A stretch of DNA of 64,000 bases from Candidatus Methanoperedenaceae archaeon (GTDB lineage: Archaea; Halobacteriota; Methanosarcinia; Methanosarcinales; Methanoperedenaceae): the NCBI GenBank assembly GCA_963753595.1, contig CAVWCX010000019.1, positions 29,492-93,491 on the forward strand. The letters are read 5' to 3'. Both the position numbers and the translations under genes were made by a program. This document shows, in pieces, positions 2,261-39,113 of the stretch. Every line of letters starts with the position of its first letter. Position 1 is the first letter of the stretch. Below the pieces are notes generated by a model. The model was not told the DNA's origin. It did not search any database and saw only the letters and a list, made by a program, of their open reading frames with translations.

Positions 2261-3076
2261 TCATTGATGGACATGTGACATCCCATTTTCATCATCTTTT
2301 TTAAGCCTTTTTGTGATCTCAATGAGAGGATGTTTGGCATAATCAAGTATTTTTATGTCAGACAGCGTATGAAGACCTGATGACATAGCGGTTTTTTCCA
2401 TACCAAGATGAATATCATCACTTACCGGGATGACATAAGCATCCATGCTATTTATCCCGAGTTTTTTAGCTGCAATTACCCTGTGATGACCATCTACAAG
2501 AATCAATTTATTCGTCTTTTTTATTACAACTATTGGCTCTGCCAGCCCTTTTTTTAATTCGTATATCCTTCCGTCAAGTTCATCTGCATATACTTTGGGC
2601 TGTGTGGGGACAAGTTCATCGATATTTACCGATTCACGGATAACATCGACATGGATATTGTGGATGGCCTCAAGGGTCTTCTTGAGTGTCCAGACCTTTT
2701 GAGGGCTTGTCCTTTCAATATGCGAACGAATAACATCTGAATTTGTAATAATGCCACGAAGATGCCCGCTTGTATCAACAACAGGTAATTTTGATTTACC
2801 AGACCTGAATATGACACGCGCCACGTCCCCCATATCCATTTCCGTATCTGCAACAAGAACATCCCGGCTCATTATACCGGAGATCTTTTCACCAAGCGCT
2901 TTTTCAAGGAGGCCAGACGCTGATACATATCCTGTTACCTTTCCATTTTCGACCACAGGAAATCCGTCATGCCCTGTTCTCCTTATAAGTTCGATAACTT
3001 CCTTGACCGTATTTTCAGGGGATACCGTATCTACTTCCGTTGTCATGTAGTTTTTAACTTTGGGGTGGTCTGTCAT
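2261..3076 (-). CDS. CBS pair plus ParB/Srx-like domain protein
   Basis: Two CBS domains, then LVPTQPKV...PIVV...LVDGHHRV. Confidence 0.85.
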   Translation of the reverse strand: MTDHPKVKNYMTTEVDTVSPENTVKEVIELIRRTGHDGFPVVENGKVTGYVSASGLLEKALGEKISGIMSRDVLVADTEMDMGDVARVIFRSGKSKLPVVDTSGHLRGIITNSDVIRSHIERTSPQKVWTLKKTLEAIHNIHVDVIRESVNIDELVPTQPKVYADELDGRIYELKKGLAEPIVVIKKTNKLILVDGHHRVIAAKKLGINSMDAYVIPVSDDIHLGMEKTAMSSGLHTLSDIKILDYAKHPLIEITKRLKKDDENGMSHVHQ

Positions 3077-33242: not shown

Positions 33243-34400
33243 TTATTCACTCACAGCTACCCTGATACAATCTTCCGTCCTTGCCAGTATACTTTTTACT
33301 CCGCAAAGGTTGGGTACATATTTATGCGCTTTCCCTGAGTTAACCATCATGCATTTGAACTTTTCACTTGCAGGCGACACCACCATGCATGTATCACAAA
33401 AAACCTTTGCACCGCTTTTCTCAATGCGTTTTATCAATTCGGGATTCCTGTTCTTCAAGGCGCGCGAGGTGCAAATCCATACTTCCTTTTTCACTTTTTT
33501 CCCATCAAGGAGTCGTGCCAATTTTTCAAGTTCATCAACGCTGCTGTGAGGGCATCCGAAAGCTATGAGGTCAGGTTCGCCAACTTTATAAACTTCTTTT
33601 ATCTGTTTCTCTTCAATGGTTATTTTTTCAGATGGTAATTCATATCTGCCTGATTCCATCGTAACCCCGCGAACGTGATACATCGCCACAGAACCGGAAG
33701 CTGCCATTGCAGCCCCGAGAGATCTGAGTTCATCTTTTGTAGGGATGGTATTCAGGTCAAAAACAGGGACTTTATCACCGATCATCTCACCCACGATGTA
33801 TCCAAGCGCACCATAATCCGAATCATAAAGCTCTGGCTCTACTTCAATGAGAATGACCGGGCGCCTGTTCTCATCCAGATGGAAGCCGTAATTCGGCGTT
33901 TTCCCGATAAGGGCAGCCGAAAGAGCGCTTGGCCCCCCTTCCCTGTTAGTTCGCGCGCCGATCACAGAGTTGGCGTAAGAAATTGCTGATGACTCACTCC
34001 ATGCCACATGGTCGCCGAAACCTGCCAGGTCATCATAGATATTATATGGGGTGCAGGAGCATTCGGTTTTGACACCGAGAGCCTCATACGCTTTGATTAT
34101 TTCCTGCTGCTTATACGCAAATTCCTCGCTAATTCCCATTTCTCTCCAGCATTCCATGTCCATGCCTGCGGGATTGAGGATCGACGGCACTACCACTTTT
34201 CCTTTCAGGTCAGATATCCACTCAAGACCCGCATCTCCTATCGTTTTATACGAAACCCCTGCGATCTGGGCGCTCTTTATAGGGATCAGCCGGTCGGCGC
34301 CGTATATGTCGCCAAGGGCGGCGAGTATCTCGATGGCTTTCTGGTATGTGGGGCCGCTTTCTCCGTTAAAGAGCTTTTCTTCATCGGGGGTGAGGTACAT
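33243..34400 (-). CDS. Aconitase X catalytic subunit (probable phosphomevalonate dehydratase large subunit)
   Basis: GVSYKTIG, CSCTPY, WSESSA, ARTNREGG, GCPHSS, DTCMVVSP, NSGKA. Confidence 0.9.
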   Translation of the reverse strand: MYLTPDEEKLFNGESGPTYQKAIEILAALGDIYGADRLIPIKSAQIAGVSYKTIGDAGLEWISDLKGKVVVPSILNPAGMDMECWREMGISEEFAYKQQEIIKAYEALGVKTECSCTPYNIYDDLAGFGDHVAWSESSAISYANSVIGARTNREGGPSALSAALIGKTPNYGFHLDENRRPVILIEVEPELYDSDYGALGYIVGEMIGDKVPVFDLNTIPTKDELRSLGAAMAASGSVAMYHVRGVTMESGRYELPSEKITIEEKQIKEVYKVGEPDLIAFGCPHSSVDELEKLARLLDGKKVKKEVWICTSRALKNRNPELIKRIEKSGAKVFCDTCMVVSPASEKFKCMMVNSGKAHKYVPNLCGVKSILARTEDCIRVAVSE

Positions 34401-34667
34401 TCAGGCCTCCTGTTTATTGGCGTTGTGCTTTCCCATAATATCACTCAAGAGAGTTGTGTAGCTTGAGTATTATTCTTATTGTTGAAATAATCTGTGCAAA
34501 ACTATCTGCGGCATGAACTACTTATTCCCGAATTCCCAACTATCGCATCCACTCAGGGCTCGATCTCCTGTCCGTTATATGTGTAGTATGATTATTATGA
34601 TAATACGTATCATATAGAAAAATTTATATCCTTATAAATATAATCAGATATAAAGATCAATCAACAG

Positions 34668-36050
34668 GTGAAAAAAACGAAATCCATCACGCTATTCAGC
34701 AATAAAAAGAGCCCTGATCAGGCAGCATATGATATAATTGAACAGGCGGATGAGAAGCTGGATTTTAAGCCCGATCTCGCTTTATTTTATGCAACTTTAA
34801 AGTATCACGGCAAATACCAGTCGATGCTGGATATATTTAATGATGAATATGGCGACATCCCGCAAATAGGCGCCTCCGTGGATGGCATGATTTACCCCGA
34901 TGACATGAGGGCTGATGGTGCGGCGCTGGTGCTATGTGAAGACGCTGGTGCCAGGATACAAGTGGATGGAATTAAAGGAAAGGGCATAATTGAGTCTGCA
35001 AAGAAACTTGCAAAAAAGGTAAAATGTGAACATGGGGCTATTATGTTGCATTTTCCAATGATACATGTACCAAGTGCTATCAGGTTCGCCAGGTTTTTTG
35101 CAAACGGATTTTATTATAGTAAAAAATCTGGAAAAGCTAATTTAGAAATGCAGAAAGAATATGCAGGTAAATTTTCTGAATACTGCGATAAAGAAAATAT
35201 TTTCTACCAATCCGCCCCGATCTTGAACCTGTTCGCAAAGCAAACCAATTATAAAGTTCCAATTATAGGTATGAATGTAATGCATACACAGGTTAGATTC
35301 AATTCTCCTAATATCTTTTCTAACTTCGAGGATTTAGGTGGCGGTATTGCCGCACTGACTATAGAGAAAAAGAATATAAATGCTGTTTATGATGATATTT
35401 TTCCCCAGAAAGGGAAAAATTTTGAAGAAACTAAAAATATTGTAAGTAACGAATTTAAAATTATCAAGAAATTTAAAGCAAAGTTTGAAAAAAACATCTT
35501 AATCTCCCTGGACAGCAAGCCGCCTGTAGAGGCTGTAAAAAATTTAATATATATTTCAGGTGAAAAAGAAAAAGAATTACATGAACATCTCGATAAAGGA
35601 GATTTTAAAGTTCAAATGCCCTATGGGCTATTATTTATAAATAAACAGACAAATGGAGCGTTTCTTCTTGGAATAGGATCTTATTTTCCTTTTGAATTGT
35701 TTCCTTTTTTCATGGATATTTCAGATTATTCGGAAGATGTTGCCCTTGTATATGAAAATATTGATGATAAATTTGATGCTTTCATTTCATGTTTGAATAA
35801 CTTGAAATATGATGATGGCAGATTTATTTATTTCTCAATGGATGTTGGAGCTGCTGCAGCATTCGGGAAGAAAACTTTCGAATACAAAGATAAAGTAAAT
35901 AAATTATTAGGTAATAACTATTTTGGAATTATGTCAGCGCCTTCTTCAGCTTATATTCCACCTGAATTCAGGTTAAGAAATTACTTATCGGAAACCCACA
36001 ATAATACTTTTTTCATGGGCACAGGGACAAGTAGTTGCCTGGAAATTTAA
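34668..36050 (+). CDS. FIST-domain (small-ligand sensory) protein
   Basis: KPDLALFYAT...IPQIGASVDGMIY...GAALVL resembles FIST_N; ILISLDSKPP resembles the FIST_C ELDGRPA motif; no TM helix; AT-rich. Confidence 0.65.
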   Translation: MKKTKSITLFSNKKSPDQAAYDIIEQADEKLDFKPDLALFYATLKYHGKYQSMLDIFNDEYGDIPQIGASVDGMIYPDDMRADGAALVLCEDAGARIQVDGIKGKGIIESAKKLAKKVKCEHGAIMLHFPMIHVPSAIRFARFFANGFYYSKKSGKANLEMQKEYAGKFSEYCDKENIFYQSAPILNLFAKQTNYKVPIIGMNVMHTQVRFNSPNIFSNFEDLGGGIAALTIEKKNINAVYDDIFPQKGKNFEETKNIVSNEFKIIKKFKAKFEKNILISLDSKPPVEAVKNLIYISGEKEKELHEHLDKGDFKVQMPYGLLFINKQTNGAFLLGIGSYFPFELFPFFMDISDYSEDVALVYENIDDKFDAFISCLNNLKYDDGRFIYFSMDVGAAAAFGKKTFEYKDKVNKLLGNNYFGIMSAPSSAYIPPEFRLRNYLSETHNNTFFMGTGTSSCLEI

Positions 36051-36949
36051 ATAAAGGCACTAAGCCCCAAAAAAATAAAGGATGCATATATCGAATTACC
36101 CATATGTTTAAGTGCTTGAAAATCTCCAGATCCTAAAGCCCAGTCTTTTTTATACATAGGAATAAATGTATTTTTTAAAAAATAAACAAACGGGATCATA
36201 ATAACCAGAATACCATAGGAGCTTAGAGTAATTAGATTCAATAGAGCCAAATAATATAACATCATAAAGTAACAGGAGTACTGAACAAGTTGAGATGGAA
36301 GGAAAACAACTCCGAAAGTTTTCAGACCAGCTTTCATATCTCCGGATATATCTTTTAAATCCTTTAATAGCAACGTTGATACGCTGAAGAAAAAGACTGC
36401 TAAAGTAATTAACAGTCCTTTTAAATTTAAATCCGAATATACAAGCCAGATGCTCAAAGTGTACATGGGCATCGCGATACTATAAGCAGCCAACTCACCC
36501 AGATAATGGTCTTTCAATCTGAAACCAATCACTTTTTTAAGGATCAAATTGTCTGAATACCACCATGTAATAATAACCCAGATTGAAGCATACAGATAAA
36601 TTGGCCGTTTAAATTCATAAGACAAATAATAAACAAAGAGCAGGGAGCAAGCATAAAGCAGTACTGAGATAAAAAGAGCTTTCTTTTGCATCGAGATATC
36701 CTGGGTTAAGATAGTTTTTTTCCCGCCTGCTGTATCTTCTTTTAAATCATTGCAATGGTTCCATAAATTAGAAGGAAAGGCTAAAAGCCATGAAACGACA
36801 ATTCCGGCAAACAAAACCGGAAAGTCATAAATTGATAACTCTTTGTGCGATATTAAGAAAAGCGATATGGCAAACAGAGGAAAGGGGGAATATATTGTAG
36901 CTGGAGTGTTGCATAACTTCAATAATGCAACAGGTTTACTCCAGTACAT
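36047..36949 (-). CDS. UbiA-superfamily membrane prenyltransferase
   Basis: NHCNDLKED (NxxxDxxxD) and KDLKDISGD (DxxDxxGD) motifs; multi-TM. Confidence 0.88.
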   Translation of the reverse strand: MYWSKPVALLKLCNTPATIYSPFPLFAISLFLISHKELSIYDFPVLFAGIVVSWLLAFPSNLWNHCNDLKEDTAGGKKTILTQDISMQKKALFISVLLYACSLLFVYYLSYEFKRPIYLYASIWVIITWWYSDNLILKKVIGFRLKDHYLGELAAYSIAMPMYTLSIWLVYSDLNLKGLLITLAVFFFSVSTLLLKDLKDISGDMKAGLKTFGVVFLPSQLVQYSCYFMMLYYLALLNLITLSSYGILVIMIPFVYFLKNTFIPMYKKDWALGSGDFQALKHMGNSIYASFIFLGLSAFI

Positions 36950-36961
36950 ATTAATTTCTAA

Positions 36962-37054
36962 TTACCAGATCCACAAACGTGCTTTCTTAAACATCTCTTC
37001 TGCTGCTTTTTGTTCTTCATCTTTTTTTGGGTTAATCTTTTTTTCGGTTTTCAT
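36962..37054 (-). CDS. 30-aa peptide ending in LWIW; candidate precursor for the adjacent prenyltransferase
   Basis: Manual translation MKTEKKINPKKDEEQKAAEEMFKKARLWIW*; AGGAG RBS upstream; stop 12 nt before the UbiA ATG. Confidence 0.7.
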   Translation of the reverse strand: MKTEKKINPKKDEEQKAAEEMFKKARLWIW

Positions 37055-37284
37055 TTATATTCTCTCCTGTTTTTTGCCCTTGAAGGGCAATATTCAATCA
37101 CAACTCTTTGATTTATATATATATTCAATTAAAAAAATGATTATAGTTATAATAATAATTATTGAATAGTAATGGGATCAGGATTTTCATTTAAAATTTT
37201 AAAACAGGTGAATTATCTATTGGCGCAAATAGCATTATTTAGAAGTTCGAAAATACACACAAAACCTGGGATGGACGGCGCCAG

Positions 37285-38562
37285 TTAATCATCTTTCTTT
37301 AATTTGGGTCTCTTCGCCCTCTCAAACTTCCATCTCTTGCTCAGATCCATCGTCGCATCAATCCCCACCTTCGTTCCTATACCATTCTCAGAGCGCGGAT
37401 CAAGCGTGCTGCCCCTCACATTCGGGTATATGTAAATGTCCTCATCACCTTTCACCCTCGTGGCAATTGCGAACTCGATATCGTTCGGGTCAAAAATATT
37501 GATATCATCATCCACTATCACCACATGCTTGCAGCTCTTATGCGCTGCAAATGTAGCATCAATGGCCTTCTTTGCCTCATCATCGTTTGTTTTATTGATC
37601 TGAACAACAGCATGGAAATAATAACATCCGCCAGGAGTCATAACAACATTTTTTACATCCGCCACTTTCCTGACTTCATTGAAGATAAGGGGCTCATAGG
37701 GTATCCCCATCATTATATTGTGCTCGCTGCCGGCAGGTATCAGGGCGTGATAAATGGGGTCGCGCCTGTGCAATATTTTCGTGATATAGATCACAGGCTG
37801 CTTCCTCACAATGTCATAAGTGCCGCTTATATCCACGAACGGGCCTTCATCAACAAGTTCTGTGGGATGAATATATCCCTCAAGCACGATTTCAGCATGC
37901 GGGACCTTTATTCCGTTTTCCAGTTCAAACACCTCAAGAGGCTCGCCAGCAAGCGCCGCGGCATAATTGTATTCCTTTCCCTCAGGCACACGGGTCGAAA
38001 TCGCAAAAAGCGCCACGGGATCTATTCCGATGACTATCGCAATCGGTAGTGGCTCTCCTTTTCCAGAGGCTTTTTTATACAGGTTGTAAGTGTGCCGGAA
38101 CTCAACAAGCCGCACAGCCAGCCGGTCTTTCCCTATGACCCTTAGCCTGTGGATAGAGGCGTTCATCAAGCCTTCATATTCAGAAACCACAACACCCGCA
38201 GTAATATACGGGGCGCCGTCACCTTCAAAATGTGTAAGGATCGGCAGCCTGTACAGGTCAGGTTTTTCGATCACTTCTCTTGTTGGCGAATCTTTAACAA
38301 GCTTTACCTCACCATCCGGCGGACAGGATGAAAGATGTTCTATGATTTTATCAGGCTTAACGCCAAGAGCCCTGGCAAGAAGTTCCCTTGATGACAGGAG
38401 GTTCATGAAAAGTTTTGACCCGTTGACATTTGTATAAAGCGCAGGCTCTTTCCCGGCAGTGGCAGAAACCTCATAAACCGGAGATAAGAGTGTTTTTATC
38501 TCAGTGAGTTTGCCCTCTGATCTTAATTGTTCAATAAATCCCCGAAAACTCATTCTCTCCAC
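37285..38562 (-). CDS. ubiD: UbiD-family decarboxylase (probable anhydromevalonate phosphate decarboxylase)
   Basis: DGAPYITAG, NASIHR, EIVLEG, EGPFVDISGTY, GSTLDP. Confidence 0.9.
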   Translation of the reverse strand: MERMSFRGFIEQLRSEGKLTEIKTLLSPVYEVSATAGKEPALYTNVNGSKLFMNLLSSRELLARALGVKPDKIIEHLSSCPPDGEVKLVKDSPTREVIEKPDLYRLPILTHFEGDGAPYITAGVVVSEYEGLMNASIHRLRVIGKDRLAVRLVEFRHTYNLYKKASGKGEPLPIAIVIGIDPVALFAISTRVPEGKEYNYAAALAGEPLEVFELENGIKVPHAEIVLEGYIHPTELVDEGPFVDISGTYDIVRKQPVIYITKILHRRDPIYHALIPAGSEHNIMMGIPYEPLIFNEVRKVADVKNVVMTPGGCYYFHAVVQINKTNDDEAKKAIDATFAAHKSCKHVVIVDDDINIFDPNDIEFAIATRVKGDEDIYIYPNVRGSTLDPRSENGIGTKVGIDATMDLSKRWKFERAKRPKLKKDD

Positions 38563-39113
38563 CGCTTGTATAAATTATGTTCGATATCAAGTAAATCAAG
38601 AGCTCTCCCTGCCATAAAATCAATAATATCGTCAATGGTTTTGGGTCTGGGATAAAAAGCAGGGCAGGCAGGAAGGATGGATGCGCCGGCTTCCATTGCT
38701 TTTTTCATATTTTCGATATGGATTAGATTCAGGGGAGTTTCCCTGGCCATCATAACAAGGGGGCGCTTTTCTTTCAGGCAGCAGTCAGAAGCCCTGGAAA
38801 TCAATGTATCAGACATCCCCGAGGCGATCGATGCAAGTGTTTTCATGCTGCATGGCGCAATTATCATTCCCTTTGACCTGTGAGAGCCGCTTGCAATCGG
38901 CGCTGTAAAATCGTGATCATCATAAACGTTATCACCCAGATCTTCCACATCCTTGACCGAATAATCAGTCTCAATTTTTATAAGTTGCTTTGCGGATTCG
39001 GAAATGACAAGATCAGTTTCAAAACCTTTCATTTGTTTTATGGCTTCGAGTATCCGTATTCCATACTGGATACCTGAGGCTCCACTCATACCTATAATAA
39101 TCTCATTCTTCAT
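38550..39113 (-). CDS. ubiX: Flavin prenyltransferase UbiX
   Basis: GMSGASG, APIASGS, PCSMKTL, RETPL, PAFYPRP. Confidence 0.95.
   Translation of the reverse strand: MKNEIIIGMSGASGIQYGIRILEAIKQMKGFETDLVISESAKQLIKIETDYSVKDVEDLGDNVYDDHDFTAPIASGSHRSKGMIIAPCSMKTLASIASGMSDTLISRASDCCLKEKRPLVMMARETPLNLIHIENMKKAMEAGASILPACPAFYPRPKTIDDIIDFMAGRALDLLDIEHNLYKRWRE

Follow-up and report, generated by a model that had tools for sequence, protein, structure and literature searches.

A conserved micro-protein encoded ahead of a divergent UbiA-family prenyltransferase in Methanoperedenaceae and other archaea: a candidate partner of the enzyme

The window analysed here is a 64,000-nucleotide stretch of the genome of a Candidatus Methanoperedenaceae archaeon (assembly GCA_963753595.1, contig CAVWCX010000019.1, positions 29,492 to 93,491 of the forward strand). 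On its minus strand, a 30-codon open reading frame (ORF) closes just ahead of a gene for a UbiA-family prenyltransferase, and the peptide that it would encode ends in LWIW. Is so short an ORF a gene at all and, if it is, does its product serve the neighbouring enzyme as a prenyl acceptor or as a partner? The first-pass annotation of this locus had chosen the acceptor: a tryptophan of the peptide would be isoprenylated by UbiA, and the resulting lipopeptide would be sensed by the product of a convergent FIST-like gene. The analysis described below leads, with about even confidence, to another reading, in which the enzyme has the micro-protein as a small subunit or regulator, within a conserved signalling module, and does not use it as prenyl acceptor. 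The features of the locus are the following:

About 37111-37127, minus strand: A/T-rich TATA-like run, candidate promoter of the peptide-UbiA operon, recognised by its sequence.
37074-37090, minus strand: perfect 7-bp inverted repeat with a 3-nucleotide loop, directly 5' of the Shine-Dalgarno-like motif.
37064-37068, minus strand: Shine-Dalgarno-like AGGAG, 9 nucleotides 5' of the micro-protein ATG.
36962-37054, minus strand: micro-protein gene, 30 amino acids, a charged helical part followed by the uncharged three-residue tail WIW.
36047-36949, minus strand: divergent UbiA-superfamily membrane prenyltransferase, 300 amino acids, both Asp-rich motifs intact, without a Shine-Dalgarno motif of its own.
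36047-36050, both strands: TTAA, the four bases that the FIST and UbiA ORFs share when their stop codons are counted.
34668-36050, plus strand: FIST-like protein, 460 amino acids (FIST_N and PF27411 'AF0772_C'), convergent with UbiA.

The layout described by the first-pass annotation is confirmed in the sequence. The translation of the ORF at 36962-37054 agrees, its ATG being the first start codon after the preceding in-frame stop. The AGGAG motif is in place, the A/T-rich run sits 57-73 nucleotides upstream of the ATG, a spacer of 12 nucleotides (36950-36961) separates the micro-protein stop from the UbiA ATG, and the stop codon of UbiA overlaps that of the FIST-like gene. By itself, a 30-codon ORF is within the reach of chance, and what exceeds chance here is its conservation.

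A first search with the enzyme covered 61 related genomes, E-values (E) up to 1e-5 being counted as matches and those up to 1e-40 as strong matches. The enzyme is matched in 29 of the 61 genomes. Within the genus of the window it is found in 24 of 36 other genomes, strongly in 22; outside the genus, strong matches occur in families f2 (2/6 genomes) and f6 (1/5), and in none of the genomes of families f3 (0/6), f4 (0/6) and f5 (0/1). These family-wide counts, here and below, refer to samples of genomes, and related genomes are not mutually independent. The loci of relatives comprise 26 with a full-length UbiA homologue and one contig-end fragment. Directly upstream of the UbiA homologue, a related small ORF is present in 26 of these 27 loci, the exception being masked by Ns at this very place. 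Among 34 named loci from a collection scan, 33 contain it, the same N-masked record being the exception, and so do 27 of 28 further loci, which belong to other families of the phylum. For a core of 16 codons, the comparison of all pairs of 25 sequences gives proportions of synonymous (pS) and nonsynonymous (pN) differences of 0.70 and 0.18, hence a pN/pS of 0.26, and the mean pairwise difference is 0.21, 0.17 and 0.43 at codon positions 1, 2 and 3. At the level of codon comparison, this shows purifying selection on the micro-protein core. Because of this selection and of its recurrence in the loci, the 30-residue ORF is, on comparative grounds, a real gene conserved in several groups of archaea, and the first-pass annotation was right to take it for one.

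The signals for translation also single out the small ORF. A Shine-Dalgarno-like motif is found 4-16 nucleotides before the peptide start in 25 of 25 loci and before the UbiA start in 2 of 25, and the ribosome-binding site of the pair thus belongs to the small ORF. The gap between the two genes is mostly 7-15 nucleotides across loci. To note, in a Methanosarcinales metagenome-assembled genome (MAG; locus L065) the micro-protein gene is located at 2944-3057, 944 nucleotides upstream of UbiA, and the A/T-rich sequence between the two may be an insertion.

The pooled loci provide 65 distinct peptides, 18-35 residues long. In an alignment of 22 sequences, residues A18 and F22 are invariant and E14, K16, E19, K23 and L27 nearly so. 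Approximately 61% of the residues preceding the tail are charged in the 65 peptides, and the hydrophobic position just before the tail is a leucine in 51 of them. The tail itself is three residues long in 43 peptides, four in 20 and five in 2. It is devoid of acidic residues, Lys and Arg in all 65, and a single His occurs. Its first residue is Phe in 25 peptides, Tyr in 12, Trp in 9, Gly in 9 and another residue in 10, i.e., aromatic in 46, while its last residue is mostly small (Gly 18, Ala 15, Cys 7, Ser 6). Trp occurs anywhere in the tail in 12 peptides and Cys in 8. At the first tail position, Trp is restricted to relatives whose enzyme is at least ~70% identical to that of the window; three tails from other families carry a Trp further along. 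Among close relatives at 95% enzyme identity the tails WIW, WAW and WFW are encountered, and the two modules of the window genome end in WIW and GAG. As judged from these alignments, the conserved part of the micro-protein is a charged helix, and the 3-5-residue tail is conserved only as uncharged. The first-pass annotation had expected homologues to share a C-terminal Trp and had named its lack of conservation as a finding that would speak against the proposal; with Trp in 12 of 65 tails, this is what was found. Phenylalanine is a poor nucleophile for prenyl transfer, and its predominance, together with the absence of a conserved acceptor, argues against family-wide prenylation of a side chain. 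The lack of a conserved prenyl-accepting residue in the tail is the reason why a subunit or regulator is preferred here over an acceptor.

The second cistron encodes an enzyme that appears specialised and catalytically intact. The Pfam UbiA model (PF01040) matches it at 56.4 bits for a cut-off of 34.2, and a paralogue and one member from family f9 also pass. The two Asp-rich motifs noticed by the first-pass annotation are there, their residues N64/D68/D72 and D197/D200/D204 are invariant in 11 aligned homologues, and both motifs are readable in one f9 sequence. The AlphaFold model has an all-helical membrane fold with a predicted local distance difference test (pLDDT) value of 86.4; with helix positions taken from this model, the motifs lie on the loops after the second and sixth helices. 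Foldseek assigns a probability of 1.00 to UBIAD1, to digeranylgeranylglyceryl phosphate (DGGGP) synthase and to the UbiA homologues of A. fulgidus and A. pernix, with template modelling scores (TM-scores) of 0.58-0.75. The best structural match is DGGGP synthase (PDB IDs 6m31 and 7bpu; TM-scores of 0.70 by query and 0.75 by target), the top match by E is UBIAD1 (PDB ID 8djk, 3.4e-5), and the nearest solved sequence is ChlG (PDB ID 9sas, E 1.9e-4). Soluble polyprenyl synthases are only weak structural matches, with TM-scores below 0.5.

DGGGP synthase also possesses a second motif of the same style, but three observations set it apart from the enzyme of the window: the NCBIfam scores for DGGGP synthase are 15.5 (NF009521) and 30.5 bits (NF009522) as compared to cut-offs of 296 and 353, DGGGP synthase has its own gene in the window genome (342.9 bits for a cut-off of 296), and it falls outside the clade of the enzyme. 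No NCBIfam family reaches its cut-off on the enzyme, the best generic prenyltransferase model scoring 33.7 versus 288; ChlG scores 28.9 versus 313, MenA at best 23.7 versus 264, and MqnP gives no match. The window genome contains nine UbiA-family matches, including an MqnP-like polyprenyltransferase (TIGR01475, 303.5 versus 180.8). In a maximum-likelihood tree, 16 family members form one clade (support 100/95; 98% of bootstrap trees) that excludes the other paralogues of the window genome, the DGGGP synthase and the MqnP-like enzyme among them. A housekeeping DGGGP synthase or quinone prenyltransferase is ruled out by the NCBIfam scores, the separate genome paralogues and this clade of its own, and in this respect the placement in a UbiA tree foreseen by the first-pass annotation came out in its favour. 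The family is also well delimited at large scale. Searched against 1.84 billion representative proteins, its profile retrieves 38 clusters at E up to 1e-30 (at least 124 bits), the next match dropping from 124 to 88 bits and the remainder to 67 or less. Of the ten nearest outside matches, nine resemble the DGGGP-synthase/ChlG branch, none at cut-off, and P0279, the closest of all, is without any NCBIfam match at E up to 1e-10. The full-length members of the 38 clusters are 281-318 residues long and the rest are shorter fragments, none being long enough for a protein fusion; the addition of a micro-protein by fusion would be too small to be visible in these lengths.

Peptide and enzyme were co-folded as two chains, each with its own alignment (11 and 22 rows), in three runs and with three controls. 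The interface score ipSAE (interaction prediction score from aligned errors) is 0.61, 0.64 and 0.64, and that of the best control 0.00, so the co-folding suggested by the first-pass annotation gave a positive result. The runs agree in at least 76% of the contacts, and the pLDDT of the peptide is 61-64. In calibration, 58 of 80 solved complexes attained the threshold of the test, as did 2 of 110 mismatched pairs, a comparison that is only rough for chains with their own alignments. The contacts involve UbiA residues 195, 198-202, 213, 217-219, 272-277, 280-281 and 284 and peptide residues 11 and 14-29. On the enzyme side, they fall where helix 176-199 ends, on the short helices that follow and on the loop preceding the last helix; D197, D200 and D204 belong to this stretch. 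From published UbiA structures, we take the contacted loops to be the cytoplasmic cap over the active site, on the side where a soluble peptide would presumably be made. A physical contact between the peptide and UbiA is thus supported by the models.

The pair does not stand alone. The FIST-like gene adjoins UbiA in convergent orientation in all 26 loci with a full-length homologue of the enzyme. The four-nucleotide overlap of the two ORFs is repeated in most Methanoperedenaceae loci; among 10 large loci of other families (L110-L119), the overlap is 11-41 nucleotides in 7, 4 nucleotides in 1 and absent in 2. As a consequence of such overlaps, the convergent transcripts would overlap at their 3' ends, and antisense effects are possible. 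The assignment of the 460-residue protein to FIST, as made by the first-pass annotation, is reasonable but marginal. The Pfam FIST_N model (PF08495) scores 23.2 bits, exactly at its cut-off, and is precomputed on many family members, PF27411 being so on all 120 listed proteins. The fold adds marginal support: the model, built with 16 sequences, is mediocre (pLDDT 67.5), the two significant Foldseek matches are both FBXO22, a eukaryotic FIST protein (E 1.7e-4, TM-score 0.19-0.25), and a sequence profile of the family retrieves no protein of solved structure.

In the second copy of the module that the window genome carries, and in most other loci, FIST is preceded on its own strand by genes for a ~118-residue Roadblock-like protein and a ~290-residue KaiC-like protein. 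The KaiC-like ATPase (PF06745), as found in paralogous modules and not in the window, scores 116.5 and 123.4 bits for a cut-off of 26.6. The ~118-residue protein remains below the cut-off of the Pfam Roadblock/LC7 model (PF03259; 16.3 versus 23), with sub-threshold matches in 5 of 12 members, and when a profile of the 12 members is searched against the PDB, 12 of the first 13 proteins retrieved belong to Roadblock/LC7 (best E 1.7e-4). By these profile matches it may be called Roadblock-like, which falls short of proven membership in Roadblock/LC7. No signal sequence or membrane segment was noticed in the KaiC-like and Roadblock-like proteins. Of the 34 named loci, 19 have both genes in the 4-kb flank that was retrieved, and 2 more have the Roadblock-like gene alone in the retrieved stretch. 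Among the 10 large loci, which represent five families, UbiA and FIST are convergent neighbours in 10 and are accompanied by both Roadblock-like and KaiC-like genes in 9. No KaiC-like or Roadblock-like gene is present in the 64 kb of the window, and the three closest named relatives likewise possess neither nearby. The complete paralogous module of the window genome (genome G000, contig C7, locus L031, 8383-12030) contains five genes, its peptide being the one with the GAG tail, and its UbiA paralogue is 62-63% identical to the window enzyme. Two copies occur in 6 of the 37 genomes of the genus searched, that of the window included. The synteny kept across families points to a functional link between peptide, UbiA and FIST, and on this linkage the first-pass annotation is upheld.

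Across 401 genomes of the phylum, the window's own included, a family member is detected in 59 at E up to 1e-20, namely in 49 of 64 genomes of f9, 3 of 3 of f33 and 2 of 4 of f17, and in none of 52 of f4 or 54 of f16. The module is thus seen in Methanoperedenaceae, in their relatives and in a second family, f9, where it is most widespread and which holds several single-contig genomes. By record names, the lineages include anaerobic methane oxidisers (Methanoperedens, ANME-2) and GoM-Arc1. The locus-tag convention behind the name AF0772_C suggests that f9 may be Archaeoglobaceae. A confinement to methane-cycling archaea, the setting in which the first-pass annotation had placed the system, does not agree with this distribution.

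The favoured explanation, that the micro-protein is a subunit or regulator, may then be laid out as follows. The micro-protein gene would open an operon of two cistrons, the second encoding the divergent, catalytically intact UbiA prenyltransferase. Ribosomes would load at its Shine-Dalgarno motif, and UbiA would probably be translated by coupling across the 7-15-nucleotide gap. The charged amphipathic helix (approximately residues 14-27) is predicted to dock on two loops of the enzyme, the one with the second Asp-rich motif, which follows the sixth helix, and the one before the last helix. The short uncharged tail would be placed at the membrane interface or at the mouth of the active site, and the micro-protein would act as a lid. 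The peptide-UbiA pair would form the membrane arm of the module, and the FIST-like, Roadblock-like and KaiC-like proteins its cytoplasmic arm. Because FIST follows KaiC-like and Roadblock-like genes, intracellular signalling is the likely context, and an intracellular signalling complex may control, or be recruited by, a specialised prenyl-transfer step.

Precedents exist for several of these elements. Chlorophyll synthase ChlG is partnered by small one-helix proteins, and UBIAD1 has been captured with HMG-CoA reductase (PDB ID 8djk): in both cases a UbiA enzyme is bound or regulated by a protein, as is predicted here. These partners are membrane proteins or a large enzyme, whereas the micro-protein is an 18-35-residue, ~60% charged and probably soluble helix with a tiny hydrophobic tail and, unlike them, would be translationally coupled to the enzyme. 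As for the cytoplasmic arm, Makarova, Galperin and Koonin reportedly proposed in 2017 that KaiC-like ATPases are signal-transduction hubs of archaea; the module resembles such hubs in that a single-domain KaiC-like ATPase is encoded next to putative sensors or adaptors, in a gene neighbourhood that is conserved. In a limited literature collection, the module of FIST, Roadblock and UbiA and its micro-protein were not found; the paper on KaiC hubs may describe the neighbourhood.

Several points weigh against the subunit or regulator so described. One genome has UbiA and FIST with no recognisable peptide gene (locus L085, the same place as L117, and the exception among the 28 loci of other families); a 73-residue ORF is found there on the other strand. 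The predicted binding comes from one predictor, with shallow alignments and a peptide of low pLDDT. A leader peptide bound by its modifying enzyme would co-fold alike, and the site fits a substrate as well as a lid. In some clades, the aromatic residue that begins most tails could still serve for recognition or as an acceptor. The cytoplasmic side of the contacted loops is taken from published UbiA structures, and the link of the window copy with the KaiC/Roadblock arm is made by homology with the paralogous module only. The case as a whole is made by sequence and prediction.

In one alternative, the micro-protein is an acceptor substrate, the helix serving as a leader and UbiA prenylating the C-terminal tail, so that a lipid-anchored peptide would tether FIST, Roadblock and KaiC. 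The acceptor would be an aromatic side chain where there is one, a Cys, or the terminal carboxylate. We regard this alternative as unlikely. A conserved N-terminal part followed by a variable C-terminal part is a leader-like layout, and the predicted complex sets the peptide beside the loop of the second Asp-rich motif. The 46 tails that begin with Phe, Tyr or Trp and the 8 that contain Cys would offer acceptors, and differences between tails, both among very close relatives and between the two modules of one genome, would suit a substrate. It is opposed by the composition of the same tails, in which no acceptor is conserved and the first residue is Phe in 25 of 65 and Gly in 9 of 65. A precursor of the ribosomally synthesised and post-translationally modified peptides would have a conserved recognition part, a core with a conserved modifiable residue, and genes for processing or export; at the locus a conserved helix is observed, no conserved acceptor was found in the tails, and no protease or exporter is conserved among the module neighbours. 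Finally, the limited literature collection contained neither a UbiA-family enzyme that modifies a peptide nor this enzyme in Methanoperedens.

A more specific version, that UbiA lipidates the tail of the micro-protein, which then anchors the FIST, Roadblock-like and KaiC-like proteins at the membrane, is quite unlikely in our estimation. An analogy may be drawn with Ragulator (LAMTOR), in which Roadblock-domain proteins and an NTPase are held at the membrane by a small hydrophobic or lipid-anchored partner. The analogy has its differences: there is no homology of the anchors and no GTPase here, and lipidation here is hypothetical. If true, this would be the first prenylation of a peptide by an enzyme of the UbiA superfamily and an archaeal counterpart of lipid-anchored Roadblock scaffolds, and the fast-changing middle residue of the W-x-W tails could define strain-specific variants in the Methanoperedens clade.

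In another alternative, which appears distinctly improbable, the role of the small ORF is purely in cis: translated as a regulatory upstream ORF or an arrest peptide, perhaps together with a hairpin, it would set the level of UbiA, and its product would have no function in trans. Such a role would agree with the gene order, UbiA lacking its own Shine-Dalgarno motif in 23 of 25 loci and starting 7-15 nucleotides past the stop of the small ORF, and with the hairpin found directly 5' of the Shine-Dalgarno motif in most loci. The inverted repeat at 37074-37090 could be a hairpin of the 5' untranslated region or an operator. A GC-rich hairpin is found at the equivalent place in loci L001-L025 with differing stem sequences. 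Compared to shuffled sequences, the folding in these 25 loci has a median z of -2.39, with 13 of 25 below -2; the values for a control region are 0.38 and 1 of 25. Changes on both sides of the stem are seen in 4 of 6 pairs (12 chosen sequences), and RNAalifold predicts zero pairs on a MAFFT alignment of the upstream regions because loop lengths vary. Known arrest peptides depend on residues at their C-terminal end. In the micro-protein, by contrast, the last 3-5 residues, which are nearest to the peptidyl-transferase centre at termination, are variable, and the conserved part is further back. Furthermore, the amino-acid sequence is conserved across families whose enzymes are only ~30-45% identical, and the predicted complex with UbiA passes against all three controls.

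The original proposal, by which a Trp of the peptide receives an isoprenoid from UbiA, in the manner of ComX, and the lipopeptide is a quorum-sensing-like signal sensed by FIST, is hardly credible: the LWIW end of the window peptide, the first-position Trp kept in relatives with similar enzymes and the linkage of the three genes speak for it, but Trp occurs in 12 of 65 tails and the second module of the same genome ends in GAG, no exporter, protease or signal sequence was found with the module, FIST shares its operon with genes for KaiC-like and Roadblock-like proteins, and the module is commonest in f9, beyond the methane-cycling lineages. A secreted lipopeptide that would act in quorum sensing is not supported. 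The ComX/ComQ system of Bacillus does resemble the locus in associating a short ribosomal peptide with an isoprenoid-handling enzyme and, in the clade of the window, in a Trp-containing tail that varies among close relatives. ComQ has a soluble polyprenyl-synthase-like fold, and ComX retains its Trp; here, the enzyme has the membrane UbiA fold, most tails are devoid of Trp, and there is neither a ComP-type receptor kinase nor evidence of export.

The immediate neighbours of the window copy encode proteins of isoprenoid metabolism:

33243-34400, minus strand: AcnX protein (Pfam, 512 bits).
37285-38562, minus strand: UbiD-family decarboxylase, flanking the module.
38550-39113, minus strand: UbiX flavin prenyltransferase, flanking the module.

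We assign all three to the archaeal modified mevalonate pathway, AcnX as its dehydratase, the UbiD-family protein as its decarboxylase and UbiX as the enzyme that makes the cofactor. They adjoin the module only in L039-L041, the closest three of the named relatives (89-95% identity), and do so neither at 83% identity (L042 and L043) nor in any other locus examined. With adjacency limited to these relatives, a functional link to the flanking isoprenoid genes was treated as incidental.

Other searches and loci deserve mention. A non-coding RNA in place of the ORF was considered and rejected, no Rfam match being found in 34300-37400 at E up to 1. An ESM Atlas search with the peptide returned no usable match. 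No RNA data set was found to contain the stretch. Four sequencing runs (Logan contigs) matched on the window, with pieces of relatives only, and none demonstrates transcription of the window locus. A 227-nucleotide contig from an RNA-seq library matches 36748-36955 at ~85% identity and is a relative's sequence, a 151-nucleotide contig from relatives falls within the FIST gene, and a 1517-nucleotide contig spans the 3' ends of FIST and UbiA, the RNA nature of its library being only guessed. Two contigs of 2.5 and 2.1 kb filed as Bacteroidota MAGs (L056, Chitinophagaceae; L068, Vicingaceae) carry peptide, UbiA and FIST genes with 66% and 45% identity, respectively; they are probably mis-binned archaeal contigs, not cases of gene transfer. 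A 662-residue protein with PAPS-reductase and 4Fe-4S domains adjoins the L031 module. A DUF502 membrane protein is encoded near the module in 4 of the 10 large loci (L110, L113, L115 and L116), all from f9, with Pfam scores of 107-116 bits in the two that were scanned. Of loci L048 and L119, one carries an additional FIST-like gene on the far side of the Roadblock-like gene and the other a tandem KaiC-like pair, which suggests local duplication of the signalling arm.

Annotation overlooks most micro-proteins of less than 35 residues, and a partner has been predicted for few of them; the one described here spans a phylum-level range of archaea. Should the peptide prove to be a substrate, its enzyme would represent a new class in peptide lipidation. 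To our knowledge, the roles of KaiC-like ATPases, Roadblock-like proteins and FIST proteins in archaea are largely predicted rather than tested. The module would provide a handle on the route from KaiC-like signalling to the membrane or to lipid metabolism in archaea, and on the function of the FIST domain.

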